Assembly (NCBI GenBank): GCA_963718435.1
Contig: CAVQZQ010000085.1
Span: 1-55,444 of the forward strand
Direction of reading: 5' to 3'
DNA length: 55,444 bases
Source: an uncultured Acidobacteriota bacterium
GTDB lineage: Bacteria > Acidobacteriota > Terriglobia > Terriglobales > Acidobacteriaceae
Shown here: positions 5,857 through 47,042 of the stretch, in pieces
Layout of the letters: every line of letters starts with the position of its first letter
How positions within the stretch are numbered: position 1 is the stretch's first letter
Position numbers and translations under genes: made by a program
Notes under the pieces: generated by a model
Told to the model about the DNA's origin: nothing
Seen by the model: the letters and a program-made list of their open reading frames with translations, nothing else
Databases searched by the model: none

Positions 5857-6275
5857 GCTAACTGGCAGCCGGCCGAAATCCAAAGTCCCAGCGGCTTGTG
5901 TGGGCACGTATTCGCTGCAGGTTAGGGAAAATTCAGGCGAAATTGAACGATTTCAGCAGCTTTTCTTCTCATTTGCGGACGCCTGAACTTGGTTTGGGCA
6001 CGACCGGGCAGAGGCGCGTTGCCGCGCGCAGCGTGGGCCCGGAGGGCAGTAATTTTTTAGACGATCCTTATACCGGAGCGGCTATTCTATAGTTGCCCTT
6101 TAGCCCAAACTTAAGCCAAATCCCGGCAACGGGCAAAACGCGATCGGACCCTCAATTTTTCCGCTTTTTTTTGAACGTTCAGCACTCCAGATTTCAAACT
6201 CACTCCAAGGCTGTTGGTCCCTCCAAGAGACCTTGGGAATTTTCATTTCAGAGGCCATTCGACTTGAGGTATTCC

Positions 6276-9200
6276 ATGCATATTTTCTCCTCTCTGCATT
6301 CCCGGCTGCCGGCAATCGCGGCAGCCGTTGCGCTGTGTAGCTTTCCAGTGTTGGCACAGCAGACGCTCGGCGGCATCAGCGGCACGGTGACAGACCCGAA
6401 TGGGGGCGTGATTCCGAATGCCGGGGTGACGGCTGTGGGCGAGCAGACGGCGTTGACGCGCACTGCATCGACGAACGGCTCGGGGGGGTATTCGTTTGTG
6501 AATCTTCCCATCGGCACCTACACGCTGACGTACACGGCTGAAGGATTCCAAATCCAAAAGACCCCGCACATCACGGTGCAGGCCGATCGCACGGTCACGC
6601 TGAATGCCGAACTGAAGGTCGCGGCGGCCAAGGGCGACACCGTCGTGGTGGAAGGCTCACCGCTGATGAATGCCGTGGACACGACAGTGGGCTATGTGCT
6701 GGACAAGACGCAGATCGATGCGGTGCCGCTGGCTACAGGCAGCTTCACGGGCCTGGCTACGCAATCGACCGGGGTGAGCGCGGAGTTTGGCGGCGGAACG
6801 GGCGCGAATTCGGGTCTTGGCAATGCTCCGATCTGGGCCAACGGGCAGAGGGACACTTCGAATTCCTTCGTGCTGAACGGAGTGGACGCCAGCAACCTCT
6901 TCAACGGCAAAAGCACAAGCCAGGTGGCTTCGGCCCGCGTAATCAATAGCACGGGCGTGTCTTCGAGCACAGGGGCCGGGGGCGTGATTCCTTCTTCCGC
7001 TTCCATTTATCTCTCGATCGGCAACGCTATTCCCACTCCAGCACCTGAAACGATCGCAGAAGTTCGCGTGAACGCCTCGATGTACGACGCGCAGCAGGGA
7101 TCGACATCGGGCGCGCACATCGATCTGAGCACAGCTTCGGGCACAAACAATCTGCACGGCACGGCGTACGTTCACCGCGGCACGAGCTGGCTCAACGCGG
7201 CGCCGTTCTTCTTCAACCAGGACCCGGACATTCCGGCCTACAACAAGGTTCCGGAGATGCACCGCTACACTGCAGGCGGCGCTGCGGGCGGCCCGCTGAT
7301 CAAGGACAAACTGTTCGGCTTCGTCTCGTACCAGCACTTGCAGGAGTCGGATCAGGAGATCGGCGACTCGGTGCTGGATGTGCCTGTGGGCCTGAGCGAC
7401 GACCGCTCTGCCGATGGCCTGGCGAACGTGTCCAATAACTCGTTTTGCACCGCGTACGACGAGGCCAATTTTGGCTGCACTCCCATTACGGCGGCCAATA
7501 TCGACCGCACTGCGCTGGCCCTGTTCAACTCGCCTGCTCTTCCGGGTGAACCGGGTAAGTGGCTGATTCCCAATGACGCGCTGGCTGCCGCCAACCTGCC
7601 GCCGCCGAGCGCGGCCCATATCGACAACGCATTCATCCCCGGAACAGGACGGTTCAAGGCAGATCTAATCGTGGGCGATCTGGATTACAACGCCAGCAAG
7701 AAAGACACGCTCAGTTTGAAGTACTTTTACCAGCATGATCCGACGCTTTCGCCCTACTCCTACTCAAGTGTGCCCGGATTTACGGAGCACCTGGACTCGG
7801 GCGCGCAGGTGTTCTCGATCATCAACACCTTGATCGTGAAGTCGAACCTGAGCACGACGCAGACACTCGGAGCGATTCGCGAGAAGAACTACGGGGACAA
7901 CGAACAGCCCTTTGGCCCCGATTCGATTCCCGGCGGGACGGCAGGCAATGGGGCCATCAACATGTTCGGATCGAAATATTTCCCCGGCATTTCCGTGTAC
8001 AACGTGCTGGGTGACTATCAGCCCTCCGGATTCCCAACGGCCATCCTGAATATCGGACCCAACGCGGAAGGGCAATCTTCCAATACAGGGATGTTCCAGA
8101 ATCGCCTGGCTCCTTCGGCCAACGCGATCTGGATCATCGGGAAACACACCTTGAGCTTCGGCGCCAGCTATACCTACACGCAGCTCAATACGATCGACAA
8201 GCGCACCGGTACTGGCACCATTGCGACGGACGACTTGAGCCAGATGGTGCAGGGCTTCGTGACGCCCGGCAGCTCTGCTACCGGCTTCTATGTCAGCTCT
8301 TTCCTGCAGGGCAACGCGAACCGATACTACCGCGCCAATCAGCTTGGGACGTATCTGCAGGACAAATGGCAGGTGAAGCCGAATCTCTCGCTCACGGCGG
8401 GCGTGCGCTATGACTGGGACGGAGGCCTGACGGAGAAGTATGGGCGCATCTTCAACTTCGACGCGAGCCGGTACAACTACAATTCAGCCTCGGACGTGAT
8501 TGAAAATACCGGACTGATCATTGCCGGCAACAACGCGAATGGCACTTCCGGCGTGAGCCCGACGACCCTGACCGGCCGTCAATGGGGCATCGCCCCGCGC
8601 GTGGGCGCGGCGTGGCAGCCGGGCATGTTCCACAACAAGGTAGTGGTGCGCGCGGGCGCCGGGATGTACTACGACCGCGGAGAGCTTTTCAGCTACTTCT
8701 CGCCCGGGTATGCCATCGGCACGGTCACCGGCGGCCCTTTCGGCGTAAACCAGCAGCTTCCTTTCGTGAATGTTTCAAGCTGCCCGACTGCGTCGCAGTC
8801 GCTGTATGAGTACTACATTCCGACCTGCGGCGGGAACGGCGGTTTTGGCCCTCCGACGGGGCCGCCGACCGATGCGGAAGGCGATCTCTCAAACCCCTAT
8901 GGGACTGCTCTCCAATACGCGGCGCCCAACAGTCCGAAGGCATCTGACTTGAGCAACTACCTGCCCAACGCTTACAGCATCACGAACTTTGGCGATGGGG
9001 CGCCGGGCGTGATCAACAACGGCCAGCCGATTTCGCTGGGCGTCTACGACCGCAAGAACAAGCTGCCGTACACCTTCAACTACACGCTCGACTTTCAATG
9101 GCAGCCGCGCAACGATGTGGCGATTGAAGTGGGCTATGTAGGGAACGTGGGCCGCCACCAGGTGATTCCGGTGCCATTCAACCAGCCGACGATCGCCTCT

Positions 9201-10293
9201 CCTTCGAGCCCAGCGCTCGCGGGCAGTGCCTATCAGCAGAACTACAGCTATGGGTACAACGTCGGTGGAGAGGCTCTGCCCGACGGAAACTTCTACCAGG
9301 CGAATTATGAGGGCGGCAACGTCGATCTGCGCGTTCCTTACATCGGTTATGCGGCTGAATCCATCACTTACGTGGCCGCCGGTATCGACGCATACAACGC
9401 GCTGCAGGCACACGTTGACAAGCGCATGAGCCACGGCCTCCAGGTCGGGTTGTCCTATACCTAGTCGCATGCACTGGACGAGCAGAGCGGCCTGGGCCTG
9501 TTCTACAGCGGCAACAATCCTCTGAACCTGCGCAGCGGGTATGGCTCATCGGATTATCGACCGCACGCATGTCATCAACTTCAACTACGTCTTACCAGAT
9601 TCCGGGGATTGCCCGGCGAGCACTCCCTCGCCGGCAAGGTCGTCGACGGATGGTCGCTGATCGGCGACACCGTGCTGCAGAGCGGCCAGCCCTACAGCAT
9701 CATCGACTTCTCCGGCGCTGTCGGCAGCATTTATTACTCACGGCCGACGGCATCACCAACCCCATCGTGCCACTGGCGAAGGGCTGCACCGCCAAGAACG
9801 CCTTGACGGGCGCTTCCGGCGCATGGACACCCTCCGGCGGCCTACCGGCCCTGAAGACCTCCTGCTTCACTCTCCCGCTGCTGCCGCCAGGCGGCCTGAA
9901 CGGCGCCATCCCTACTTCCGATCCTTACGAAACCGGGTTCACGAACGGCCAGCGCAACATCTTCCGCCAGGCTTTCCAGAAGCGTGCAGATGCGTCGCTG
10001 GTGAAGGTTCTGCCGCTCCGCGAGAGGTACAACTGAAGTACACCTTCGACTTGTACAACCTGACGAACACCACGAGCCTCGATATTCCGGGAGCCGAGGT
10101 GTCACAAAACGCCGGCTACAACCCGTTCCCCGCAGGTACTTGGGACCAGCCCGTCGGCTCCCACACAGGCTCTTCCGACGTCCTGCGATTCCTCCAGCAC
10201 GGGGTTCTATGCCTGTCCTTCCGGGTTAGGTATTGTGACCCACACCATTGGCAGTCCGCGACAGATACAAATGTCGTTGCGGCTCGATTTTTG
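6276..10293 (+). CDS. TonB-dependent receptor with N-terminal carboxypeptidase regulatory-like domain; the 3' roughly 830 nt carries an in-frame TAG (9462-9464) and at least 4 frameshifts
   Basis: ATG at 6276 with a GAGGT RBS and a signal peptide (MHIFSSLHSRLPAIAAAVALCSFPVLAQQ). A CarboxypepD_reg-like beta-sandwich follows (ISGTVTDPNGGVIPNAGVTAV, GGYSFVNLPIGTYTL). An intact 1062-codon ORF runs to 9464. Receptor sequence continues in shifted frames (GKVVDGWSLIGDTVLQSGQPYSIIDFSG, QLKYTFDLYNLTNT) to the canonical C-terminus SPRQIQMSLRLDF* at 10293. Confidence 0.75.
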
Positions 10294-10789: not shown

Positions 10790-13839
<3,050 letters not shown>

Positions 13840-31636: not shown

Positions 31637-32090
31637 GTTTCTGACCGCGTGATTTCCTGCTTTGAGTTCATGCTTTCCCGGGTCCCAAAATCAGGACCTG
31701 GGGCACCCATAGTTGGTACAACAACAAGCGGTCAGAGATCTAGTGAGAAGTCAGATTTTCGACGCAGCGGTTTTCGATACAAGCCCAAGATTCCAGCCGT
31801 GATGCCGACTGCTCGTGATCGATTCAGACTTGCGTCTCTAATTCAATTCGATCTAAGGAGTTGCAAGGGACTTATGGTTGCACCTTTCTGCGCTGAGTTG
31901 GGTCGAACGGGCCGCTTCAATCCCGAATTCCAAGGTCATTTAATTTTGTGTCGCAAGTGCAATCCAAGGCCATGAATGAGTCGTACCTCATTCAACCGAG
32001 TGGCGAATTCCTGAGCCTCTCAGCCGTTTTCTCCCCCGGGGTTCAGGTCGTCCCATTCCCCAATGCAACGAAGTTAACCAGGAGAGCCAT

Positions 32091-33850: not shown

Positions 33851-35175
33851 ATGAAATCATTGCATTCAATTCTGTTTTGTCTTTGCGTCTTCTCGTGGCG
33901 TGGCCTTGCCCAGCAAGCGGCCTTGCCTTCAGCGACTGCGTCCCCTTTGGCTGGTGATGTGACAGCGCAGGAAGATACACCCGCGCAACAACGCATTGCA
34001 GAGGCCAACCAACAGATTGCGGATGATCCGAAGAAGGTGCAGGCATACAACGAACTGGCCATCGGGTTTCTGCGGAGATCGCGTGAAACTGCCGATCCAA
34101 AGTATTTAAAAGACGCCGATGCGGCTCTCGCTCAAGGTCTAAAGCTGGATGCGACAGATTTGCAACTGCAGAAGACCCAAGTGGCCCTCATGCTGAGCAG
34201 ACACCAGTTTGCTGAAGCAAGGGAGCGCGCGATGGCTCTCCAGAGACGAACACCGGACGATGTAATGACTTATGGATACATTGCCGAGGCAGACATCGCG
34301 CTCGGCAATTATCCAGAGGCAGAAACGAATGCACAGTGGATGATGAATATGCGGCCCAACAACACGCCGGCACTCCTTGTGGGGGCCAAGCTGCGCGCCT
34401 TATACGGCGATGTGCATGGCGCGATCGAGTTTCTCAATGGGGCTTATTCGCAGACTTCGCCTATCGAAGTGGAGGACCTAGCCTGGATCGCGAACCAGAT
34501 TGCGTCACTTCAAATCGACTCGGGACAGGTTGACTCGGCGGCCGAGACCTGGAGCAGGCCGAGCAGGTATTCCCTCATTATCTCTACACAACGGAAAATC
34601 TGGCGCGCGTCCGCATGGGCCAGCATCGTTTTAACGATGCGGTTCAGTTGTGGCTGAGTGCGGTGCGCGTTGATCGTGACCCTCACGTGCTCTTTGAACT
34701 GGCAAGAGCGCAAGACGCGGCAGGACAGGCCCGGGAGGCCGGCGCCACATTTGAGGAGTTCAAAAGGCTGGCCGGCACGCCGGAGACCGCGACGGATATC
34801 GCGAAACTCGACCTCATCCTGCTATATGCAGGAAGCGCTGCCACTGCTCCAAGAGCGCTGCAACTTGCTCAACAGGAAATACAGGCGCGGCATGATGTGT
34901 GGACCCTGGACGCTTTGGCCTGGGCGCTCTATTCAAATGGCCAATACCAGCAGGCGAGCGCCGAGATGCAGAAGGCAATAGCAGTCGGAATTCATAGCTC
35001 CCAAATCTTCGACCATATGGGCCATATCGCGCAGAAGCTTGGCCTGAGCGCAGAGGCAGCGAAGTACTTCCAGCTTTCCGTTCAAACCAATTCTGCCTCA
35101 TCCTTCGCTGCGGATGCTGGAAGAGTTGCCGGCCTGGGCACTGTAGCGCACGACGATCAGCCAAAGATGACTGAT
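33851..35175 (+). CDS. Secreted TPR-repeat protein (paralog 1), one frameshift near 34560-34620; 3' end uncertain
   Basis: Signal peptide MKSLHSILFCLCVFSWRGLAQQ. TPR-like helices continue after the frame change (ORF 34615..35457) with HDVWTLDALAWALYSNGQYQQA, shared with paralog 2. Confidence 0.55.
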
Positions 35176-35197
35176 CTCGAAGCGGCGGCGAAAGCTA

Positions 35198-36562
35198 TTG
35201 ATGCAGTCTCTCCGGCTCCTTCGAGCTCCAGATCACATCGCATCAACGATCGAGGTTGTAAAGGCGGACCCCGTTTTCGCTTCGGTTCCCGAGGCCCTGC
35301 TGACGCCGCAACCGACTGGCTCCATTCACGCAATTCACACCGCGCAAGCAACCGTGGCACGCAATCCAAAGGACGCAGTGGCATACGCGGGATTGGGCGC
35401 AGCATACCTTCAACGCGCCAGGGAGACAGGCGACATAAGCGACTATCAACTCGCTGAAGAGTCGCTGAACAAGTCACTCGACTTCGGCTCCGCAGATTTT
35501 TCGGCCGACGATGCGCTCGCAACGCTGGCAGAAGTTTGCATGGGAGAGCATCGTTTTACGGACGCGCTCCACTTTGCTCAGAAGGCTCTCTCTCTCGGAA
35601 CCGGGGACGTATCGCCCTTTGCAATCGTTGGCGATGCGTATGCAGACATGGGTGAATACGACAAGGCGGCCAATGCATACGGTCGATTGACACCTCGCGA
35701 TATGACGCTTTCTCCGCGCGCGGCCTATGCGCGAGACAGCCGACTCTCTTATCTCAAGTTCATCGCCGGCGATACTACAGCGGCGATCTCTCTTATGAAA
35801 ACCGCGGTTACAGAGGGTGTTGAAGCTCAACTTCAGAGCGAAAATCTCGCATGGTTGTACTACGAACTGGGCGAGTACGAAGTGCAGGCGGGCGACGCAG
35901 CTTCCGCCAATGTGGCATATCTTCAGGCCCTCAACGTACATCCCGGTGATTATCGCGCTCTCGCAGCCTTGGGCAAGGTTCGGGCAAACAATGGCAGATA
36001 TGCTGAAGCAATCGTCCTCTATAAAAGCGCAATTGCGGTTGTGCCGATGCCCATTTACATCGCGGAGCTTGGCGATCTCTATGAGAAGGTGGGCAACCGG
36101 ACAGAGGCTCAGAAACAATATGCGCTTGTCGAATACATCGGGCTCCTGGGCAAGATCAACCAGGTGCTTCACAATCGCGATCTCGCACTTTTCTATGCCG
36201 ACCATGACGTGAAGCTTGCTGAGTCTCTCGATCTCGCTCAGAAAGAGCTGGAGCTCAGGCACGATATCTACACATGGGACGCGCTGGCGTGGGCTCTCTA
36301 CAAGAACGGAAAGCTGACGGAGGCCGCAAAAGCAAGCAAAAACGCCTTGAAGTTCGGAACGCGCGACCCCCTGCTCCTGTTTCACGCCGGAATGATTGCC
36401 GAAGGACTTGGAAATCGTGAGCAGGCTCAAAGGGAGATGGAGGAAGCGCTTCAGATCAACCCGCATTTCCATTTCATCTATGCGAATACGGCACAGCAGA
36501 GACTCGCCGCGCTGGGAGCGCAAGCAGAGTCGACCGGAGGATCGAATGACCACGCTCGTTAA
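35198..36562 (+). CDS. TPR-repeat protein (paralog 2)
   Basis: 454-aa intact ORF. It shares the HDIYTWDALAWALYKNGKLTEA block and overall TPR architecture with the upstream gene. It has no obvious signal peptide, so the true start may lie upstream in another frame. Confidence 0.6.
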   Translation: MMQSLRLLRAPDHIASTIEVVKADPVFASVPEALLTPQPTGSIHAIHTAQATVARNPKDAVAYAGLGAAYLQRARETGDISDYQLAEESLNKSLDFGSADFSADDALATLAEVCMGEHRFTDALHFAQKALSLGTGDVSPFAIVGDAYADMGEYDKAANAYGRLTPRDMTLSPRAAYARDSRLSYLKFIAGDTTAAISLMKTAVTEGVEAQLQSENLAWLYYELGEYEVQAGDAASANVAYLQALNVHPGDYRALAALGKVRANNGRYAEAIVLYKSAIAVVPMPIYIAELGDLYEKVGNRTEAQKQYALVEYIGLLGKINQVLHNRDLALFYADHDVKLAESLDLAQKELELRHDIYTWDALAWALYKNGKLTEAAKASKNALKFGTRDPLLLFHAGMIAEGLGNREQAQREMEEALQINPHFHFIYANTAQQRLAALGAQAESTGGSNDHAR

Positions 36563-38981
36563 GAGGCCAGGCAGATTCTTGACGCTGGTGCTGTTGCTCG
36601 GCTTCTGTCGTTTGGCTGGGGCTCACCCGATGGGAAATTTCAGCGTGAACCATTACTCCAAGATTTCTTTGGAGACGGATGGGGTTCGCGTCACCTACTT
36701 CATCGATCTGGCGGAGATACCCACCTATCAGGAATTGCAGCAAGCCAATATCTCTGCATCCGCAATCGCTCCCGATTCCGCAGCCGTCATCAACTACGTT
36801 GCGGCCCGAGGTTCGGAGCTGGCACGCGGTCTCATTCTCCAGGTGGATGGCAAACCGACTCCTCTTCGGCTCATCTCCAGTGGGGTCATTTTTCCTCCGG
36901 GCGCAGGTGGTCTTCCCACGATGAAGATGGGCTTTGTGTATGAGGCAGCCTATTCATCGACTCCCTCGACGATGGACCGCCAACATATCAGCCTTCATTA
37001 TGCCGACAATAATTATCCCGGCCACGCGGGATGGAAGGAGATCGTGGCTCTGCCCGGAGATGGCTCCCTGCTTCGGAGCACTATCCGCACGTTGGATCGT
37101 AGCAACGAGTTGAGCAACTATCCAACCGATCTGCTGAGCAGCCCTCCCCAGGATCTCGAAGCATCGCTGGTCGCGACGCTGCCGCCCTTGCCGGCGGTCG
37201 CTCACGACGCACAGAGTGCCCCTCTGTCGTCATTAGCAGCGCGTCAAGCAATGAGAGCGGCGCCCGCGTTGAATCGAGTCGGCGAGAAGAAGGGACCCAC
37301 GCGCAAGCCGTCCACGTCCCGAACTGATTCGGTCGCCCAGGAAACTTCGAAGCCCGCACGGCCTCTGTCGGCTACCGTGCATCTCCAGGCGAACCGGCAA
37401 CAGACACCCCGCAGCAGATTTACTGAGTTGATTCAAGCCCAGGATCTCAGTGCATGGTTCTTGTTTACCGCGGCCCTCATTGCCATCGGTCTTGGCGGGC
37501 TTCACGCCCTGGAGCCTGGCCACGGCAAGACCATCGTCGCCGCATATCTTGTCGGCTCCAAAGGGACAGCGCATCACGCAATACTTCTTGGAATCATCGT
37601 CACCGCATCGCACACGGCCGGCGTCTTCGCACTGGGTGCCGTTACACTTTACGCTTCACGCTACATCGTGCCCGAGCAACTCTATCCCTGGCTTGGCGGG
37701 CTCTCCGGCATCACGATTGCGGTGCTTGGCGGCTATATGGTTCTGCGCCGCCTGACCGGCGCGGGTACAGATCACTCTCATACTCCGGGCAGTTCCCACG
37801 GTCACTGGAAATTCTGGAATCGCCCAGCGGAGGATGAGACAGATCGCAATCCTGCCGCGAGCATGACGCCTTCAAAACAGTCCGTGAGCCTGACCCAGCT
37901 TTTTGTTTTGGGTATTACCGGCGGAATCATCCCATGCCCGGCTGCGCTGATCGTGCTCCTGAGCGCATTCGCGCTGCACAGAATCGGTTTGGGCTTCTTC
38001 CTGATCGTGGCATTTAGCGTTGGCCTCGCCGCAGTTCTGATTGGCTTTGGAATGTTGATGGTGTACGCGCGCCGCTTTATGAGCCGTCTTCGGATCGACG
38101 GCGCGTTGACCAGGCGTTGGCTTCCGGTTGTGTCCTCCTCATTCATTACAATCCTCGGCCTGACCCTGGCGATTCAATCCCTGGCTTCGGTGCATCTCGA
38201 CGCGCACTTGTTTTCAAAAGAGCGGCTGGGGCCGATTCTGTTCGTTACTTGCCTGGGCCTGATCCTCGGGATGCGGCACTCTACCGACGCCGACCATGTG
38301 GTTGCAATTTCAACCATTGTGAGCAAGCAACGAAGCATCCGCAATGCCGCTGTCATCGGATCCGTCTGGGGGTTGGGTCATACGATAACAATCTTCATCG
38401 TCGGCTCGCTGATCATCCTTTTCGGAGTGGAGATTCCACCCCGGCTGGGTTTGTCGATGGAGTTCAGTGTGGCTCTCATGCTCGTACTCCTTGGCATCCT
38501 TAACCTCACCGGCGTGATGCAAAAGGTGACAACCCGGATGACTCCAGTAGTTACGATCGCGAAGGACGCACCAGACCTGAAACCGAAGAAAACAGCCATG
38601 ACCAAAACGGGGAAACTTCGGGAGAACTCGGTAGGTCGCCTTGGCATCTATCAATGCGCGAGGCCCCTGGCCATCGGTCTTGTTCATGGTCTCGCCGGAT
38701 CAGCGGCGGTCGCGCTACTCGTCCTGTCTACAATTCATAGCCCTGTCTGGGCAACGGTTTATCTTCTAATCTTCGGTGCCGGAACCATGATCGGGATGAT
38801 GTGCATGACCGCAGTTATTGCACTTCCGCTTACATTTGCTGGAGATCGCTTTTTGAAATTGAGCAAGTATTTCGGAGCTGCATCGGGGATGGCCAGTCTT
38901 TGTTTTGGCTCGTTCCTTGTCTACCAACTAGGATTTATGGGAGGGCTGTTTACCAGCCACCCTCAATGGATTCCCAGATAG
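36555..38981 (+). CDS. Fusion membrane protein: signal peptide + about 290-aa periplasmic domain + RcnA-like NicO Ni/Co transporter domain + HoxN/NixA-like NicO domain
   Basis: GGAGGA RBS then ATG 36555 (MTTLVKRPGRFLTLVLLLGFCRLAGA|HPMGNFS). The first transporter domain has HALEPGHGKT, a His-rich loop DHSHTPGSSHGHW and GGIIPCPAAL. The second has GMRHSTDADHVVAIS and WGLGHTITIF. One uninterrupted 808-codon frame. Confidence 0.7.
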   Translation, partial: LVKRPGRFLTLVLLLGFCRLAGAHPMGNFSVNHYSKISLETDGVRVTYFIDLAEIPTYQELQQANISASAIAPDSAAVINYVAARGSELARGLILQVDGKPTPLRLISSGVIFPPGAGGLPTMKMGFVYEAAYSSTPSTMDRQHISLHYADNNYPGHAGWKEIVALPGDGSLLRSTIRTLDRSNELSNYPTDLLSSPPQDLEASLVATLPPLPAVAHDAQSAPLSSLAARQAMRAAPALNRVGEKKGPTRKPSTSRTDSVAQETSKPARPLSATVHLQANRQQTPRSRFTELIQAQDLSAWFLFTAALIAIGLGGLHALEPGHGKTIVAAYLVGSKGTAHHAILLGIIVTASHTAGVFALGAVTLYASRYIVPEQLYPWLGGLSGITIAVLGGYMVLRRLTGAGTDHSHTPGSSHGHWKFWNRPAEDETDRNPAASMTPSKQSVSLTQLFVLGITGGIIPCPAALIVLLSAFALHRIGLGFFLIVAFSVGLAAVLIGFGMLMVYARRFMSRLRIDGALTRRWLPVVSSSFITILGLTLAIQSLASVHLDAHLFSKERLGPILFVTCLGLILGMRHSTDADHVVAISTIVSKQRSIRNAAVIGSVWGLGHTITIFIVGSLIILFGVEIPPRLGLSMEFSVALMLVLLGILNLTGVMQKVTTRMTPVVTIAKDAPDLKPKKTAMTKTGKLRENSVGRLGIYQCARPLAIGLVHGLAGSAAVALLVLSTIHSPVWATVYLLIFGAGTMIGMMCMTAVIALPLTFAGDRFLKLSKYFGAASGMASLCFGSFLVYQLGFMGGLFTSHPQWIPR

Positions 38982-39108
38982 TGATTATTCGAATGGTTAC
39001 AGAATCGCCCAGAGTGCGAAAGGTTCTCATTCTTTGTCCAGGAGTACTCCGAACTACGGATGGGATTGTTATAGGTGTAACGCAGAGGTAACACGAAGAG
39101 GATAATCA

Positions 39109-41481
39109 GTGCTGGGGGTCTCTCGATTCGCGATGAACGGACTTAGGGAGTGCGAAGCCGGTGCGTGCTGCGATTGTTTTGGCAGCCTGAGCAGACTTCT
39201 CAAAACTCTCCTGTGCGGCTGGACGCAGGTCCTAATCCTGCTCTTTTTTCTTTCGCAGGTTTCAGCCTACGCGAACTCCATTGAGGTGAGGGGTACCGTT
39301 TCTGATCCCGCTTCGAGGCCTGTCGCAGGCGCTACCGTTGAGCTTGTTGGCGGGAATGATGAGTCATTGGCCCGTACAATCACCGGTTATACGGGCTGTT
39401 TCCAACTTTCAGCGAAATCGACGGAGGAGTATCGCCTGATTGTGAAAGCGGCTGGATTTCAAACAGTTTCAAAAATGCTGGTGATCTCCCCATCCGAAGC
39501 GCGATACGAAATCAATTTCAGCCTGACCATCAGCACGGTCGAATTGGTGACAGTTACATCGGACGTGGGTAATGTTGACGTATTTTCTCCGGACCCAGCC
39601 GAGAAGGTCTTTGTTCAGCAGGACCTGATCGATGCAAACCCGGGTCGTGCGGGAGCGCCCGTCTCGATTCCCGGCTTTCCCATTGAAACTGCGTCAGGCG
39701 GCATTAAGGCTCCGCAATATTTTGCTCCGGGCGTTGCGGCGGATCATGGTGAGCCAATCGCGCAGTTCATTTCGGTCGGCGGCTTTCTGCTTCCCAATAA
39801 CCTCTCTGCGAACGCGCACGGGAATGGATATGCCGATCCTAATATCCTCATCCCGCAAGTTCTTGGAGATGTCCAGGTGGACGGAGGATCCTTCAATGTG
39901 CTCGAAGGGAATCATGCGGTGAACCTCGCTGCCTCCTATCGATTGCGATCCAGAGTCGCGCCATTTGTAAATTTGTCGGGGGACTATCGCGATATCGGTC
40001 TCGCGATGGGAATGAGCCCAGGGGAAAAGTCATGGGTGGCTCTCGAGGCCTCCTACGGCAATGGCTTCCTCAAGCGCCTCGAGCATCGGCAACAGTACAA
40101 GATCAACGGCCAGCGCGTGTTTGAGACACACCAGCACCAATTAACTCTTCTCGGAATCGGGTACTATGGATTCTCTTACATTCCGGGGCTAGTCCCCATC
40201 GGCAGGGCGAACCCTGACTATCCGAATGTCGGCGACACCGTCGATCCTCGCCAGAAGGAGCAGACACATACTTCGCTGATCGCGCTTAACGATGAGTGGA
40301 CGCTGAACCGGCAACAGAATCTCCAAATCTCTGGATTCTTCCGTACTTACAATCTGTCGCTCAATTCGGATTTCGGGGAGGGAATGATTCGGCAAAGCGA
40401 GTTTCGCACGGTGGCGGGAACCAGCGCCAACTACACAGACGAAGTCAGCAGCAGCCTCTCAGTCTTAGCCGGGCTCGATTTTGAGCGGGAAGCCCCGCGC
40501 CGCGACGACCTCGATCACTACAACTTCTACACACCTGGGAATATGGATTCGGGCCCATTCTCTAAAGTGGACGGAAGCAATGTGACGATCACCCCGATTA
40601 GTCCCTATGCCGCGTTTGAGGGCGCACTGGGAAGCCGCATTCGCTACTACGCCGGCTGGCGGCGCGATCAGATCGAGATCGACAACCAGGACCTTTTGCT
40701 GCCCAAGGATTCGTTTCATGGGTGGGTTGGCGTGAACTCTCCGAAAACAACCGTCTCAATTATTCCCGGCTCTGCGCGGTGGGCGCCTTTGGTGTCGGCC
40801 AGCGCGGGCGAGTCATTCTTCACTGAAGACCCAAGGGTTGGAGCAGGAACGACGCACGAGACGCTTGTGAGCCGAGCTCACTCGTATCAAATGGTGGCGA
40901 GCAAGCTGATTTCCCACACAGATATTAGGTTGACGCTCGGGCAACTGACCGGAGCCGCGCAATTGGCCAAGATTGATCCGGACACGGGATTGCAAGAAAA
41001 CCAGGGGCCGGGCCGCATGCGATTTCTGACTACCGCAGTCAAGCAGAATTTCGGCGCCGGCTCATTGCTTCTGACTTGGTCGAAGGCGGATGCCCGCGAT
41101 ATCGACACCGGACAAATGACACCAGAGGCCCCCCGAACGATCTTCGATCTTCTTGGCGCGTCGCAGAAGTTGCCTCTGCGCCTTCAGGCGAAAGGGGAAT
41201 TCGAGTACGTCGCGGCAAAGCCGCTGGGCACCGGATGTGCACCTGATCCAAATGCGCAATGCATCGGCGTGCGAGTGAGGGAATTGCGCGCGGCCGTCTC
41301 GCGTTCATTTCAAGAAGGACGCTTTAACATCGGAACGAATCTGTTCTTAGCGAGCGGCTTCACCGGCCAGACTCTGGAAACCTTCTATCCTTCCACGACA
41401 TCCCAAGTGGCGGGCGTCCGCATTCCGTCTTACGCAAGCATCAATTTCACCTACAGGTTCGGTGCTTCCTCTGCGCCATAA
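39109..41481 (+). CDS. TonB-dependent outer-membrane receptor with N-terminal CarboxypepD_reg-like domain
   Basis: GTG start with a GAAGAGGA RBS and signal peptide LLCGWTQVLILLFFLSQVSAYA. A beta-sandwich (IEVRGTVSDPASRPVAGATVELVGGND...YRLIVKAAGFQ) is followed by a plug-like region. The C-terminus ends INFTYRF. 790 aa, intact. Confidence 0.7.
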   Translation: MLGVSRFAMNGLRECEAGACCDCFGSLSRLLKTLLCGWTQVLILLFFLSQVSAYANSIEVRGTVSDPASRPVAGATVELVGGNDESLARTITGYTGCFQLSAKSTEEYRLIVKAAGFQTVSKMLVISPSEARYEINFSLTISTVELVTVTSDVGNVDVFSPDPAEKVFVQQDLIDANPGRAGAPVSIPGFPIETASGGIKAPQYFAPGVAADHGEPIAQFISVGGFLLPNNLSANAHGNGYADPNILIPQVLGDVQVDGGSFNVLEGNHAVNLAASYRLRSRVAPFVNLSGDYRDIGLAMGMSPGEKSWVALEASYGNGFLKRLEHRQQYKINGQRVFETHQHQLTLLGIGYYGFSYIPGLVPIGRANPDYPNVGDTVDPRQKEQTHTSLIALNDEWTLNRQQNLQISGFFRTYNLSLNSDFGEGMIRQSEFRTVAGTSANYTDEVSSSLSVLAGLDFEREAPRRDDLDHYNFYTPGNMDSGPFSKVDGSNVTITPISPYAAFEGALGSRIRYYAGWRRDQIEIDNQDLLLPKDSFHGWVGVNSPKTTVSIIPGSARWAPLVSASAGESFFTEDPRVGAGTTHETLVSRAHSYQMVASKLISHTDIRLTLGQLTGAAQLAKIDPDTGLQENQGPGRMRFLTTAVKQNFGAGSLLLTWSKADARDIDTGQMTPEAPRTIFDLLGASQKLPLRLQAKGEFEYVAAKPLGTGCAPDPNAQCIGVRVRELRAAVSRSFQEGRFNIGTNLFLASGFTGQTLETFYPSTTSQVAGVRIPSYASINFTYRFGASSAP

Positions 41482-41717
41482 GAGTCTCCTCCAGGTTTCA
41501 AGCCAGATCAATCCCGTAGAATGCCTAGATCGGCGAACCGTTGCCCACTTCCGGTTAGAAATCGGCTTCCTGGAATTGGTTTTGGACCGTGGTCCGGTCG
41601 AGTAGAAAATAAACTGCGGGAGAACCGCGGAAGAAACTGATAATGGGTCCAGGACTGCGGATCCAGGATCGAAAATCCAAATCGTCACGAACTGGGGAAT
41701 GGTGTATAGAGGTGCAA

Positions 41718-43010
41718 ATGAGTTCAGAACCGAACCTCCTCCATCCACGCGATCAACTCATGCAGATGATGGATCGCATTTATCGCTATCGGATGACCAC
41801 CACCTCAGGTGGCAACCTCTCGATTCGCGACACAAATGGAGATGTCTGGGTTACACCCGCTCGCGTCGATAAGGGCAGTCTGCGGCGAGACGACATTGTT
41901 TGTGTCAAGGCAAACGGGACGGTGGAAGGCCTTCATCCTCCATCTTCGGAGCTTCCCTTCCACCAGGCGATTTATCAGGTTCGGCCGGACCTTGGAGCCA
42001 TCGTGCATGCCCATCCGGTGGCCCTGGTGGCATTCAGCATCATCGGGCAGGTTCCGGATACGCGCCTGTTCCACCAAGCCAGCCACATCTGCGGGGCGGG
42101 AGGCTTTGCTCCCTACGCGTTGCCCGGGAGTGCTGCCCTCGGACAAGAGATTGCCAATATTTTTCGACAAGGTTTCAACTGTGTCATTCTTGAAAACCAT
42201 GGGGTGGCCGTGGGAGGCGCAGATTTGCAAGAGGCTTTTCAGCGGTTTGAGATGTTCGAATTCACGGCGAAGACGATCATCAAGGCGAGCATCCTTGGCC
42301 AAGTTCACTATCTGGACGACGAGCAACTGAAGTTGTCGCAAGAAGAACTGCCGGCTCTTGCCGAGTTTGATCGAGCGCCCGCAGACAGCCGGGAAAAAGA
42401 GGCTCGGCGTAAACTAGCCGACTTCATTCGCCGAGGGTACCAGCAACGATTGCTGATCAGCAAGGCGGGGAGCTTTTCAGCCCGATTGGACGACGATTCG
42501 TTTCTCATCACGCCCCACCGGCTGGATCGCAGCGCTGTCGAACTTGAAGATTTCGTTTTGATCTCGGAGGGTAAGCGCGAGCGGGGCAAGACGCCGAGTC
42601 GCGCGACTCCCAATCACCAGGCCATTTACCGTCGCTATCCTCAGATCGTCGCCATCGTGAACGCGTCCCCGGTAAATGGAACGGCCTTCAGCGTGACGGA
42701 CTGCGCGTGTGATTCTCGAACTATTCCTGAGAGCTATGTCTTCCTGCGCGAGGTGCAGAAGATTCCTTTTGGAATTCAATTTGCGGATGGCGAAGAACTG
42801 GCGCAACGCATGTCCCCGCGCAATCCCATTGCGCTTCTCGAGAACGATGGGGTACTCGTTCTGGGCACCAGCATCCTCGACGCATTCGATCGCCTGGAGG
42901 TTCTGGAGTCAACTGCGGAGGCACTCATCAACAGCCGTCCTCTGGGCCAAGTCACGCCCATGTCTGACAGCGTGATCAAGGAACTGGCCACAGCCTTTTC
43001 GTTGGATTGA
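41718..43010 (+). CDS. Tandem class II aldolase/adducin-domain protein (two fuculose-phosphate-aldolase-like domains)
   Basis: GAGG RBS then ATG at 41718. Two class II aldolase modules are present: [14 protein letters not shown]...[13 protein letters not shown] and ...[27 protein letters not shown].... Confidence 0.75.
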
Positions 43011-43462
43011 TCTGCGCAAGGGCCGATTGAATGCGGGCAGCGCGGCTGAGGTCAGGATTGGCCCCGGTGGCGGTCACTCTGTCCGCGCTGTTTCTCCAAA
43101 CAGGCGCACTGCTTCGAGTGAATCCGGCGAGACAGTTCCGTCTTCGTACATGAGGAGATTGAAACTGAGGGCCAGGTGGCGGGCTTTAGCATACTTCGCC
43201 ATGCTCACAATTTTCTCGGAACGGAAAGGTCGGCGATGCTGCCAGTCCCCGGAATGCAAGGTGCAAACGGATTGGACCTGCAGGACGGAGGTGTTTTGCC
43301 GCCTCCGATGCACCAGATTCCTGTGTTTGCGTCCCAGTCATTGTCATAGCGCAGGCTGGCAGCGATGGCATAGCATGAGTTCAGTCGCTGGTTGGTATGC
43401 CGCTATCTTTTGGGACGGTGCCAATGGGAGACCAGGCTAGAAGAAGAGCAAAGAAAGTGGGA

Positions 43463-45116
43463 AATGAATATGTCATCCTATGCAATTCCTGAAGTATTGA
43501 AGCCTTCTTCTGTTGCGGGCGATGAGGCGATTCTGGTTGCCAACGGAGATTTGCGTCAATCGGCCAACCAGGTTTGCTGGGCAGCGCAGGCGGGGCTTGA
43601 ACAGATGCTGACCGAAGCCTTTCTTGAAGAAGGGATCAAGCTGCGCCGAGCGCACGCTTACAATCCGGCTCTGAAGCACGGCTTTATCTCGGGCCAGCGC
43701 ATGGGCATGGATGTCTTCGCGCAGATTCATCCCGAAGCTCCTCTGGTGGTCGCCGAAGCAGTGTGGCAATACAGCGGTCATCTCTGGGCGGGACTGGTGA
43801 CGCATCGCGGCCCGATTCTTACCGTCGCAAATTGGTCCGGGCAGTGGCCGGGGCTGGTGGGCATGCTCAATCTGAATGGGTGCCTTCGCAAGGCCGGAAT
43901 TCCCTTCAGCACGCTCTGGAGCAAGGATTTCAAGGACCCCTTTTTCAAGAACGGCCTCAAGCAGTGGATCAAGGACAAGGTCGTAGTGCACGATACATCG
44001 CATGTGCATGAGTTTGTTCCCGAGCGAGTAGGTGAGGCCGAGCGGACCCTTGGAAGCGCCCTGGCAAACCAGTTGCAGAGCAAGAAGGCCATTCTGGGCG
44101 TCTTCGATGAGGGTTGCATGGGCATGATGAATGCCATCGTTGAGGATTCCCTGATGAACCCCGCCGGCATCTACAAGGAGCGGCTCAGCCAATCGGCCCT
44201 TTATGCCGCGATGCGCGATGTGACGTCCGATGAGGCGCAAGCGGTGCGGGACTGGCTTGACAAGAGCGGCATGCGATTCATCACCGGCAGCAGCGAGGCC
44301 GAGGACCTGACCGATGCGCAGATTCTCGATCAGTGCAGGATGTATATTGCCGCTTTGCGCATTGCCGACGAGTTCGGCTGTGACGCCGTCGGCATTCAGT
44401 ATCAGCAGGGTCTCAAGGACCTTGTGCCGGCTTCCGATTTGGTCGAAGGACTGCTGAACAATGTTGACCGTCCGCCTGCCTACAGCCGCGACGGTCGTGA
44501 ACTCTATGCTGGGAAGCCGCTACCCCACTTCAACGAGGTGGATGAATGCGTGGGCGTGGATGCGGTGGTGACCAACCGCGTCTGGACGGCGATGGGGCTG
44601 GACCCGGCTACGACTTTGCACGATGTGCGCTGGGGCGAGCAATACACGGCCGACGGCATCGACGAGTTCGTATGGCTGTTCCAGATTTCGGGGGCCGTGC
44701 CGGCCTCGCACCTGGTGGGCGGCTACAAAGGCGCGGTCAGCGAGCGGCAGCCATCGATGTATTTTCGCCTGGGCGGCGGCACGCTGAAGGGCGTGTGCAA
44801 GCCTGGGGAAGTGGTCTGGAGCCGGGTGTATGTTGAGGGCGGCAGCCTGAATGTCGACCTGGGGCGGGCCACGGCGATCTCCCTGCCCGAAGCGGAGACC
44901 ACCCGGCGCTGGAAGGAAGTGACTCCGCAATGGCCCATCATGCATGTGCTGTTGCATGGCGTGGACCAGAATCAGTTCATGGCCCGTCATCCTTCAAATC
45001 ACGTCAATGTGGCCTATGCGCCGACAAGCGAAGAGGCTGACCGGGCATTGGCAGCAAAAGCAACCATGTTCCACGAGATGGGCCTGCATGTTCATCTTTG
45101 CGGAGTTGAACTCTAG
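43463..45116 (+). CDS. L-fucose/L-arabinose isomerase-family sugar isomerase (FucI/AraA-like)
   Basis: 550-aa intact ORF with a C-terminal region HPSNHVNVAYAPTSEE...HVHLCG resembling Mn-dependent FucI/AraA C-domains. Assignment is by overall architecture only, and the start (43463 or 43469) is uncertain. Confidence 0.55.
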
Positions 45117-45480: not shown

Positions 45481-45821
45481 GACGATCCGCGGTTGTGTTT
45501 CGGGGCGCCGGCATCTCAGGGCGCATCACATCGCTATAGCATCCTCACGATGGCGCAATTGAAGACGCGGGACGAGGTTTATCTTCTACAACGGCCCTAC
45601 ACGTTTCGGTATTCGTGCAGCTCCGTTCGTCGCGGATCGCCTCACTTTGGCGTGCTGACGGGGCATAGCCCGCATTCCGTGGCTGTCGGGGATTACACCT
45701 CCGCCCCTTCTCCTATAGCATTCGATTCTGAAGAGGTTCGACGCAGACGGGCTGCCATTATTCGATCGTCAACCCTATGGCGTCAGTTTCGTCTAAAGAA
45801 CTGGAAGTGTGTCGCCGATCC

Positions 45822-47042
45822 ATGAATAAACAGATCATGATGCGAATTCGAACGATTCTGGCATATGCCGCCCCGACGTTGGCTATGGCGTGGCTGCCCG
45901 CCGCCAGTTCTGCGCAGGAACCTGCGACGGACAAGCCTGCTTTGACCATGCATGTGCAGGCGCGCGAAGTGCTGCTGCCGGTGACGGTGCGCGACAAGCA
46001 CGGCGCGCTCGTGACCGATCTTCAGAAAAGCGACTTCACTTTGACTGAAGACGGCCGTCCGCAGGTCATCAAGAGTTTTGCGCGCGAGACGAACCTGCCT
46101 TTCAAACTCGGACTGCTGGTGGATACGAGCCGCAGCGTATCAGGCGCGATGGAGAATGAACGTAAGGCGGCGGGAACATTTGTGGACCAGATGCTGCCGG
46201 GGGATCCCGCCGCGGCGTCGGCTTCGGGAAGCACTGCCGGGCCCGCGGCCGCTGCGAGCCCCGCGCCTTCTGCGAATGACCAGGCCTTTCTGCTCCATTT
46301 TGACCGTGAAGTGGAACTGCTGCAAGACTTCACCAACTCGCGGGAGAAGCTTCACAAGGAACTGGACGACATGGGGTCCACTTCACGAACACAGGACGAC
46401 CGTGATGGGCCGGAGACCACAGGAGACAACCGCGATCATTCGCGCCGGGCGGGCACACAGCTTTACGATGCGATCTTCCTGGCCTCCGATGAACTGATGA
46501 AGCCCAAAGACGGGCACAAAGCGCTGGTCGTTTTTTCAGACGGAGCGGACCGAGGCAGCAAGGAGACACTAAACGACGCGATTGATGCGGCTGAGCGCGC
46601 CAACGTGTCGATCTACACCATCTACTTCAAGGGCGAACAAGAGCGCACCAACAGCGGATTTCCTGGCGGTGGGCGGCGTGGCGGAATGGGTGGCGGCTGG
46701 CCAGGCGGCGGCGGAGGTTATCCGGGGGGAGGCGGAGGCTATCCGGGGGGCGGTGGCGGACGGCGAGGCGGCGGTGAGCCCCAGATAGACGGCAAGAAAA
46801 TCATGGAGCAGATTGCCACACGCACCGGCGGCAGGTATTTCGATATGAAGAAGAAGGAAGACCTGGAGGAGATTTACGGATTGATAGCCACCGAGTTGCG
46901 CGGGCAGTATCTGCTGACCTATACGCCGGACAAGGTTGATACCGACGGCGGATTTCACAAGATCGCGCTGAAGGCGGAGAAGAATGATCTGACCGTGGTC
47001 ACGCGGGAAGGATATTTCGCACCGGGCGGCGACTCCAAGTAA
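45822..47042 (+). CDS. Secreted VWA-domain protein of the VWFA-related acidobacterial type, with a Gly-rich insert
   Basis: Signal peptide MNKQIMMRIRTILAYAAPTLAMAWLPAASSAQ. An N-terminal beta-rich module (LTMHVQAREVLLPVTVRDKHGALVTDLQKSDFTLTEDGRPQVIKSF) is typical of the acidobacterial VWFA-related family. A VWA core (LVVFSDGADRGS, SIYTIYF) and a GGGYPGGGGG insert follow. Confidence 0.7.
   Translation: MNKQIMMRIRTILAYAAPTLAMAWLPAASSAQEPATDKPALTMHVQAREVLLPVTVRDKHGALVTDLQKSDFTLTEDGRPQVIKSFARETNLPFKLGLLVDTSRSVSGAMENERKAAGTFVDQMLPGDPAAASASGSTAGPAAAASPAPSANDQAFLLHFDREVELLQDFTNSREKLHKELDDMGSTSRTQDDRDGPETTGDNRDHSRRAGTQLYDAIFLASDELMKPKDGHKALVVFSDGADRGSKETLNDAIDAAERANVSIYTIYFKGEQERTNSGFPGGGRRGGMGGGWPGGGGGYPGGGGGYPGGGGGRRGGGEPQIDGKKIMEQIATRTGGRYFDMKKKEDLEEIYGLIATELRGQYLLTYTPDKVDTDGGFHKIALKAEKNDLTVVTREGYFAPGGDSK

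Follow-up and report, generated by a model that had tools for sequence, protein, structure and literature searches.

We analysed a stretch of 55,444 nucleotides (nt) of contig CAVQZQ010000085.1 from an uncultured member of the Acidobacteriaceae (Acidobacteriota), hereafter the window, in which a single gene encodes a membrane protein that joins two different halves of the NicO superfamily behind a periplasmic domain predicted to begin with histidine (His1). The gene lies next to genes for a DUF4331 protein, a tetratricopeptide repeat (TPR) protein and an outer-membrane barrel protein. Taken together, our results suggest an envelope system controlled by an extracytoplasmic function (ECF) sigma factor, in which the His1 domain would hand a Ni(II)/Cu(II)-type ion to the fused NicO permease for uptake with the DUF4331, TPR and barrel proteins assisting, and we give this reading a probability of about 0.5. 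The transporter is best filed as an anglerase-like domain carried by a different, doubled permease family with new partners.

Architecture of the fused transporter

The forward-strand frame at positions 36396-38981 is open without interruption. The first-pass annotation, made from the DNA letters, had placed here a fusion of 861 amino acids (aa) starting at 36555. The frame was right, and the two figures were slightly off: 861 aa is the length counted from the first TTG, and the gene likely starts at the ATG at 36546, giving 811 aa, because a GGAGGA Shine-Dalgarno sequence lies 5 nt upstream, the TPR gene ends at 36562 and the homologues are 796-817 aa long. An exact look-up of the 811-aa product returned no database record, probably because another start was called. 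All of the motifs quoted in that annotation were found, namely ...CRLAGA/HPMGNFS (the slash marks the predicted cleavage site), HALEPGHGKT, DHSHTPGSSHGHW, GGIIPCPAAL, GMRHSTDADH and WGLGHT. From hydropathy and an AlphaFold2 model, the protein consists of a signal peptide, a periplasmic part of ~275 aa and then 6 + 6 transmembrane (TM) helices, with the following parts.

36546-36623, forward strand: signal peptide (aa 1-26, ending ...CRLAGA before the His), with a hydrophobic stretch at aa 11-26 and a predicted cleavage site
36624-37190, forward strand: periplasmic beta-sandwich domain, anglerase-like, which would begin with His1 (aa 27-215; the N-domain)
37191-37430, forward strand: low-complexity linker, predicted to be disordered (aa about 216-295; predicted local distance difference test score, pLDDT, below 50 for aa 219-275)
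37431-38201, forward strand: RcnA-like half with 6 TM helices (aa 296-552), with HALEPGHGKT, a short His-rich loop and GGIIPCPAAL
38202-38981, forward strand: second half with 6 TM helices (aa 553-811), where the NiCoT signature GMRHSTDADH is accompanied by WGLGHT and VHGLAGSA; the stop codon comes next

In the model the periplasmic part is folded over aa 27-215 and disordered over about aa 216-290, and the linker of ~75 aa is variable in length and poorly conserved (alignment A1). The TM segments of the first half span aa 303-548, with HALEPGHGKT in TM1 and the His-rich loop between the third and fourth segments, and those of the second half span ~aa 561-800, the first of them holding GMRHSTDADH and the second WGLGHT. 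Since the N-domain would lie outside, both halves should have the same orientation, with their central loops in the cytoplasm. The model of the whole fusion, built from a 103-sequence alignment, has a predicted TM score (pTM) of 0.46, and its membrane part is made of 12 long helices.

Conservation and distribution of the fusion

A word-indexed search of 5.8 billion proteins listed at least 120 full-length homologues (71-80% identity, 97-100% coverage), and a profile search added ~85 further full-length homologues with 32-70% identity in which the fusion was kept. Among 50%-identity representatives, an exhaustive search gave 11,317 matches with two architectures: a three-part form of ~730-820 aa and a commoner two-part form of ~450-570 aa, which holds the N-domain and the RcnA-like half only. 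Since the TPR gene of this contig shows two frame changes and the barrel gene starting at 6093 is broken by an in-frame stop, both of them apparent errors or pseudogenes, one might suspect that two neighbouring ordinary NicO genes were merged here by a sequencing or assembly error. This is extremely improbable, as more than 200 full-length homologues from independent samples hold the single frame, divergent three-part representatives (36-54% identity) align across the junction of the halves, and the Logan assembly of run ERR10755948 is identical to the window at 37983-43939, junction included. The conserved frame and the identical independent assembly thus ruled out two separate genes or a sequencing artefact and bore out the single-polypeptide fusion of the first description.

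To see how far the fusion recurs, 185,579 species genomes were scanned, yielding 591 relatives. Sources are given here for the best 80 of these 591, and the synteny counts below are over 82 loci (those named are numbered with an L). The carriers among the best 80 were Acidobacteriota (Terriglobia, Blastocatellia and Pyrinomonadaceae), Ignavibacteria, Binatia, Methylomirabilota/Rokubacteria, Actinomycetota, Chloroflexota, Armatimonadota, Planctomycetota, deltaproteobacterial metagenome-assembled genomes (MAGs) and one cyanobacterium. The closest relatives in the scan came from Terracidiphilus and Acidobacteriaceae MAGs (74-75% identity), and orthologues are present in the cultured Acidobacteriaceae bacterium KBS 83 and in Edaphobacter aggregans DSM 19364. 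Far from being unusual, as had been thought from the window alone, the fusion is a common and conserved architecture in Acidobacteriota that is also present in other phyla. The annotations of the homologues conflict, ranging from 'nickel/cobalt exporter' and 'high-affinity nickel transporter' to 'sulfite exporter TauE/SafE' and 'hypothetical'.

An anglerase-like periplasmic domain

Anglerases are His1 'mono-histidine-brace' beta-sandwich domains joined by a short linker to HupE/UreJ-2 permeases (PMC12537917, Nat Commun 2025, Franco Cairo et al.). RbAng-1a binds Cu2+ with a dissociation constant (Kd) of 74 nM and Ni2+ with a Kd of 220 nM, and the authors proposed that the anglerase domain catches metal ions and delivers them to the permease for uptake (PMC12537917). 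That paper mentions none of RcnA, NicO, DUF4331, TPR proteins or Acidobacteria.

Several features of the fusion point to a domain of this kind. The residues A26-H27-P28 do not vary among 13-16 divergent sequences and reach at least 90% conservation in a set of 103 (alignments A1-A3), and G30, F32, D54, A56 and E57 of the N-domain are invariant or nearly so. Because of the AxA-H pattern, cleavage of the signal peptide would leave His27 as residue 1. The structure prediction proposed in the first-pass annotation was run, and it gave a beta-sandwich with a helical insert over aa 27-215 (pLDDT about 90). This is an immunoglobulin (Ig)-like fold similar to that of RbAng-1a, and the best structural match of the N-domain found with Foldseek was the Ang-1 domain (E 5.9e-3, TM score 0.46). 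The earlier suggestion of an N-terminal-His metal site holds up well, given the near-invariant A26-H27-P28 and a best structural match that is itself a His1 domain binding Cu and Ni. By analogy, D54 and E57, residues 28 and 31 counted from His1, would fall near the second-ligand positions of Ang-2 (Asp33) and Ang-1 (Asn41). Searches with the N-domain, as a single sequence and as a 24-sequence profile, gave no meaningful match in Pfam, NCBIfam or the PDB sequences, nor did Pfam scans of the 24 profile members one by one.

The likeness to Ang-1 and Ang-2 (PDB 9GCE; PMC12537917) thus lies in the conserved His right after the predicted cleavage site and in the Ig-like beta-sandwich. The differences are many. 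Sequence similarity of the N-domain to Ang-1/Ang-2 was undetectable; the permease here is of the NicO superfamily and doubled, whereas theirs is HupE/UreJ-2 (PF13795); the linker is disordered and about 75 aa long compared with 6-9 aa; the carriers are Acidobacteriota and many other phyla, whereas anglerases were described from Pseudomonadota and Actinomycetota; and the gene neighbours here are DUF4331, TPR and ECF sigma genes. The zinc-binding beta-sandwich proteins of the ZrgA/PA4063 type (PDB 8EZW, 8F1B) stand further apart. ZrgA is free-standing, works with an ATP-binding cassette (ABC)-type system and is not described as being defined by a His1 site, and the N-domain has no sequence similarity to it.

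In many homologues the helical insert of the N-domain carries an EF-hand-like DxDxDGxIxxxE loop (alignments A1 and A6; aa 65-85 of the window protein), which the window copy lacks, and 4 of 24 N-domain homologues gave weak matches to EF-hand_5.

Two divergent membrane halves

The comparison with the Pfam NicO model (PF03824) that had been suggested at the outset placed the whole fusion above the gathering cutoff (52.5 bits compared with 27.7, in three matched stretches). Alone, the middle half scored 44 bits and the C-terminal half 21.2 bits (E 2e-4), the latter under the cutoff. Pfam matches in the membrane part were to NicO and DsbD_2 only, and HupE/UreJ-2 (PF13795) was not detected there.

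The middle half matched the RcnA model of NCBIfam (NF007454/PRK10019) with an E-value of 5e-36 and 124.4 bits (110.8 bits for the whole protein). At 124 bits against a cutoff of 195, it is RcnA-like without being a member of the subfamily. Compared with Escherichia coli RcnA (YohM; PF03824), it aligns over almost the whole model and likewise has six TM helices; TM1 holds a His motif, TM4 a Pro-Cys motif, and the cytoplasmic loop in the middle contains His. The central loop (aa 405-445, containing DHSHTPGSSHGHW) would be cytoplasmic because the N-terminus lies outside and three membrane spans precede it. This loop is short in the window copy, with 5 His, and His-rich cytoplasmic loops are predicted in both halves of most homologues. 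Beyond RcnA, the fusion adds the N-terminal periplasmic domain and the second permease half at the C-terminus.

In the C-terminal half we found the signature of nickel/cobalt transporters (NiCoTs) such as HoxN, NixA and NhlF (TIGR00802), G-[LM]-R-H-x-x-D-A-D-H followed by G-x-G-H-[ST], as GMRHSTDADH at aa 575-584 and WGLGHT at aa 608-613. The match to the HoxN/NixA model TIGR00802 was confined to the first ~60 residues and reached 18-20 bits (E 4e-4) against a cutoff of 333. We take the combination of six TM helices and a NiCoT signature to resemble the UreH-type nickel permeases. Calling this half HoxN/NixA-like, as was done initially, overstated the case at the family level, because it has 6 TM helices instead of 8 (PMC2667541) and VHGLAGSA in place of the NiCoT LGFDT motif. 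The claim that the two halves belong to different NicO subfamilies fared better. In a profile comparison with hhalign the halves were homologous over ~220 columns (probability 95.7%, 15% identity), and the C-terminal half aligned with a canonical NiCoT over ~170 columns (E 1.4e-5, 24% identity), whereas the RcnA-like half gave no alignment with it. The halves are therefore homologous but divergent, and the C-terminal one alone aligns to NiCoT.

Both halves keep candidate metal ligands. Invariant residues of the RcnA-like half are H320, P324-K328, H356, T357 and P463-C464-P465, and those of the second half are H578, D583, H584, G611, H612 and H714, of which the first five are invariant in 103 sequences. 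The invariant candidate ligands are H320, H326, H344, H356 and C464 in the first half and H578, D583, H584, H612, E639 and H714 in the second. Two loci present natural variants. The C-terminal half is a separate 233-aa gene (11336-12037) after an in-frame stop in an actinomycete MAG (L070), and a canonical NiCoT gene with 8 TM helices (11563-12633, Pfam E 9e-95) directly follows the two-domain transporter of a Capsulimonadaceae locus (L076). No separate C-domain gene was found near the other two-part loci.

Conserved partners and putative regulation

The gene neighborhood revealed partners that had escaped the first-pass annotation: the DUF4331 protein, the TPR protein and an ECF sigma/anti-sigma pair with its promoter motif. 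Three of these features lie upstream of the fusion gene in the window.

31960-31985, forward strand: putative promoter motif of the ECF-sigma type, CAATCC-N16-CGTA, some 130 nt ahead of the DUF4331 start codon
32091-33722, forward strand: DUF4331 secreted or periplasmic protein, 543 aa (PF14224, E 4e-116, 389 bits compared with a cutoff of 27)
33851-36562, forward strand: gene of a periplasmic TPR protein, with Pfam TPR matches, the counterpart of a single 911-aa open reading frame (ORF) in L002

By tblastn, 61 of the 82 loci have a DUF4331 gene no more than 4 kb away from the transporter, as do 48 of the 55 that have at least 5 kb on both flanks. A TPR gene stands beside the transporter in 72 of 82 and 51 of 55, respectively. 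This synteny spans at least 8 phyla, and the order DUF4331 - TPR - fusion is seen in two close loci. All 58 DUF4331 sequences share the pattern [small]-x-[A/G] followed by [S/A]-[S/D]-H around an invariant His, with Ala or Gly at position -3 in 58/58, Ser or Ala at -2 and Ser or Asp at -1. If the signal peptide is cleaved at this pattern, the predicted mature N-terminus of the window protein is Ser-Ser-His, an X-X-His motif of the amino-terminal Cu(II)- and Ni(II)-binding (ATCUN) type. A comparison of DUF4331 with the PDB sequences found no solved relative. In two Chthonomonadales loci (L072:6090-7467 and L073:6878-8366), DUF4331 is encoded by two consecutive shorter ORFs, the first corresponding to the N-terminal part from ...GSDHADTP and the second to the C-terminal part with GGRKLTDDVVD.

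The TPR protein has a signal-peptide-like N-terminus. A tblastn search with the 911-aa protein of L002 read the window gene in frames 2, 1 and 2, with changes near 34548 and 35225, both outside homopolymer runs. Together with the in-frame stop in the other barrel gene of the window, these changes may be assembly errors or mark pseudogenes. The TPR gene of L001 is also split, at another position. In more distant loci there are either one or two TPR genes, each encoding about 420 aa, which suggests that the 911-aa form arose by tandem duplication and fusion.

Alignment of 12 orthologous upstream regions revealed a common GCAATCC-N16/17-CGTAC about 130 nt before the DUF4331 start. The form CAATCC-N16/17-CGTA suggests an ECF-sigma promoter. 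The exact motif occurs within 400 nt upstream of 21 of 57 DUF4331 genes, Methylomirabilota and Rokubacteria included, against 0.006 expected per site; it also faces a divergent barrel gene in L002, L005 and L008 and the ECF sigma gene in L021. Next to the cluster in 14 loci are ECF sigma genes that are related to one another; most are paired with a gene for an RskA-type or ChrR-cupin-type anti-sigma factor, and for L070 and L031 Pfam bore out these domain types. The window itself contains no ECF sigma/anti-sigma gene. An Rfam scan of the window found one tRNA only and no riboswitch (cobalamin or NiCo), and terminator and sigma-70 promoter scans over the cluster stayed at background level and were uninformative. 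A possible leader hairpin, CCTGAG...TTCAGG, with conserved sequence lies at 32011-32058, between the promoter motif and the DUF4331 start. It was rejected as a structured leader RNA, being a weak hairpin with a consensus energy of -0.98 kcal/mol and little covariation. A second match to the promoter motif in the window, at 9586-9611 on the minus strand, falls inside the interrupted barrel gene and is probably due to chance.

The adjacent predicted outer-membrane barrel

Downstream of the fusion gene, 127 nt away and on the same strand, is the gene of a 790-aa protein.

39109-41481, forward strand: outer-membrane protein, 790 aa, with a CarboxypepD_reg match (E 8e-13), the TonB-box-like ELVTVTS and a modelled barrel of ~22 strands

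The CarboxypepD_reg domain, the gap and the strand had been described correctly, and the further label of TonB-dependent receptor stands at the level of the fold only, in a low-confidence model. In this AlphaFold2 model (mean pLDDT 54), about 22 strands lie in aa 239-737, and the top 50 of 50 Foldseek matches in the PDB were TonB-dependent transporters (E 2e-9 to 2e-6, TM score 0.3-0.44). A Pfam scan up to E 10 found neither Plug (PF07715) nor TonB_dep_Rec in the protein. The ELVTVTS stretch (consensus ESVTVTAD) precedes a highly conserved region at the position of a plug (aa 96-234 in the numbering of the 743-aa query), which AlphaFold2 left unmodelled. A 40-sequence barrel profile matched receptors in the PDB only in the N-terminal CarboxypepD_reg domain, and some homologues of the 790-aa protein are named 'TonB-dependent receptor' by NCBI. 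Compared with known families, the protein has a modelled ~22-strand barrel like the TonB-dependent transporters of metals (ZnuD, BtuB and Ni uptake of the FrpB4 type) and an N-terminal CarboxypepD_reg domain like the SusC-like receptors, but lacks a Plug/TonB_dep_Rec match and the usual C-terminal aromatic residue. Our best reading is that it may be TonB-dependent-transporter-like at the fold level only.

The proposed linkage between the receptor and the transporter is non-random within Acidobacteriota, where a barrel gene lies within 700 bp of the cluster edge in 13 of 45 loci, plus the window; the remaining 565 kb of flanking DNA holds just 4 such genes, so that roughly 0.5 adjacent barrels are expected by chance. 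It does not involve one conserved receptor, as at least two non-orthologous barrel types take this place, and three acidobacterial barrel queries detected no barrel beside the cluster in loci outside Acidobacteriota. The association between barrels and the cluster is real but lineage-specific. One could still argue that the 790-aa barrel is not part of the system here, its adjacency arising from the abundance of CarboxypepD_reg outer-membrane proteins in Acidobacteriota, with the metal entering through porins. The barrels beside L001 and L002, the closest loci fetched, are of a different type (1136-1179 aa) and not orthologous to that of the window; orthologues of the 790-aa type abut or flank the cluster in only 5 of 82 loci (L003, L004, L008, L017 and L059); and the 127-nt gap carries no ECF motif. 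The missing Plug and TonB_dep_Rec matches and the lack of adjacent barrels in other phyla, as judged by the three queries, go in the same direction. We consider this somewhat unlikely, as the excess over chance in Acidobacteriota is large, the divergent barrel genes of L002, L005 and L008 have the promoter motif in front of them, and in the window the barrel gene follows on the same strand after a short gap without a convincing terminator.

Proposed mechanism and direction of transport

In the mechanism that we propose, the cleaved beta-sandwich domain would expose His27, whose amino group and imidazole, possibly with Asp54/Glu57, would capture a Ni(II)/Cu(II)-type ion, and the long flexible linker would give the domain the freedom to swing across to the permease entrance. 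The permease could be viewed as a covalent pseudo-heterodimer of two NicO-superfamily halves of 6 TM helices each, one RcnA-like (H-x5-H, PCP) and one with the NiCoT signature (HxxDADH/GxGH), through which the metal would move into the cytoplasm to be received by the His-rich loops. The ATCUN-like DUF4331 protein and the TPR protein would be constant partners, presumably as metal shuttle and scaffold, and the TonB-dependent-transporter-like barrel may provide the outer-membrane step in many Acidobacteriota, including on this contig. Our data show the architecture and how well it is conserved, the likeness of fold, the synteny and the promoter motif; from these we infer the signal-peptide cleavage, the identity of the metal, the direction of uptake and the roles of DUF4331 and TPR. 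Nickel would be the most consistent metal, because it fits the His1 site, the ATCUN site, the RcnA and NiCoT motifs and the NiCoT neighbour, with Cu as the main alternative and Co also possible.

A number of observations weigh against this reading. All of the system's components are known here from sequence and models. The Foldseek match of the N-domain to Ang-1 is modest (E 5.9e-3, TM score 0.46), its 24-sequence profile retrieved neither 9GCE nor any other PDB chain up to E 10, and the permease family differs from that of the anglerase precedent (NicO compared with HupE/UreJ-2). The packing between domains is uncertain in the fusion model (pTM 0.46), the barrel's plug and TonB box are putative, and the two TPR frame changes may mean that the local copy of the system is impaired. 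Neither genes of Ni, Co or Cu enzymes nor NikR/Zur-type regulators or riboswitches were seen nearby. His-rich cytoplasmic loops are known in exporters and importers alike. E. coli RcnA, the best-characterised member of the NicO permease family, confers Ni/Co resistance by export and has a His-rich loop in the cytoplasm (PMC11247825).

Export is the main rival on the question of direction, because RcnA exports and because the regulator resembles a stress-type ECF sigma factor. The two halves would then expel Ni/Co (or Cu), and the His1 domain and DUF4331 would sequester the expelled ion or pass it on in the periplasm, as in RcnA/RcnB or CopC-type handling, with an ECF switch under metal stress like CnrH in Cupriavidus. 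The RcnA efflux model is the strongest family match of the middle half and RcnA exports Ni/Co (PMC11247825), most homologues have cytoplasmic His-rich loops in both halves, a sigma factor that is not of the FecI type and is paired with an RskA- or ChrR-type anti-sigma factor suits a stress response, and 'nickel/cobalt exporter' is a database label among the homologues. We nevertheless find export unlikely, as the score falls under the RcnA subfamily cutoff (124 compared with 195 bits), the NiCoT-signature half and the NiCoT neighbour in L076 belong to uptake families (PMC2667541), the closest structural precedent of the His1 domain sits on uptake permeases, and importer-type TonB-dependent barrels abut the cluster non-randomly, sharing its promoter motif in three loci. 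With the same architecture and mechanism, the substrate could also be copper, supplied to or removed from the envelope, for example for periplasmic or membrane cuproenzymes. Sites with an N-terminal His or an X-X-His (ATCUN) sequence are well known for binding Cu(II), the tightest binding by RbAng-1a and MmAng-2a is that of Cu2+ with Kd values of 62-74 nM (PMC12537917), and Cu(I) would go well with the PCP motif of the RcnA-like half, whose Cys is invariant. This is less likely still, since both membrane halves carry Ni/Co transporter motifs, a canonical NiCoT adjoins the transporter in L076, ATCUN and His1 sites bind Ni(II) too (Ang-1 with a Ni Kd of 220 nM), and genes of copper enzymes or chaperones were not noticed in the clusters.

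Other genes in the window

A second CarboxypepD_reg-type outer-membrane protein gene lies at 6093-9740. Its ORF (6093-9464, 1123 aa) ends at an in-frame stop at 9462-9464, beyond which the homologous reading goes on (SYT*SHALDEQSGLGLFY...), indicating a pseudogene or a sequence error. Downstream of the 790-aa barrel gene, the segment 41643-45116 encodes two proteins that probably form an unrelated pair of sugar metabolism: one of 455 aa with two matches of the class II aldolase/adducin type, the other of 574 aa with weak L-fucose-isomerase-like matches. At 45777-47042 lies a gene for a 421-aa protein, predicted to be secreted, in which a striking Gly-rich repeat (GGGGYPGGGGGYPGGGGGRRGGG) is found near the C-terminal third.

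Significance

We found no paper describing the architecture or the cluster, and the genes stand in public databases under generic, conflicting names; a literature search for DUF4331, PF14224, DUF1007, COG2215 and COG3683 gave no useful paper. The analysis joins the anglerase concept, described in 2025 for HupE/UreJ-2 permeases, with the NicO superfamily and the large DUF4331 family. Tentatively, the cluster may be a so far unrecognised metal-acquisition system of the envelope shared by many phyla, in which an ECF pair and its promoter control an ATCUN-bearing DUF4331 protein as periplasmic Ni/Cu shuttle, a TPR scaffold and a third class of anglerase feeding a fused permease, with TonB-dependent-type barrels dedicated to outer-membrane passage in Acidobacteriota. 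The proposal makes testable predictions on the His1 and X-X-His metal sites, the ECF motif and the pseudo-heterodimeric permease, for which the natural split and single-half variants could serve as controls. If true, it would give a first function to DUF4331 and show the anglerase principle at work in a second superfamily of permeases. The acquisition or control of trace nickel, cobalt and copper in soil bacteria such as Acidobacteria is poorly known, and if the uptake model holds, the system would be a new route of transition-metal capture that is widespread in soil phyla.

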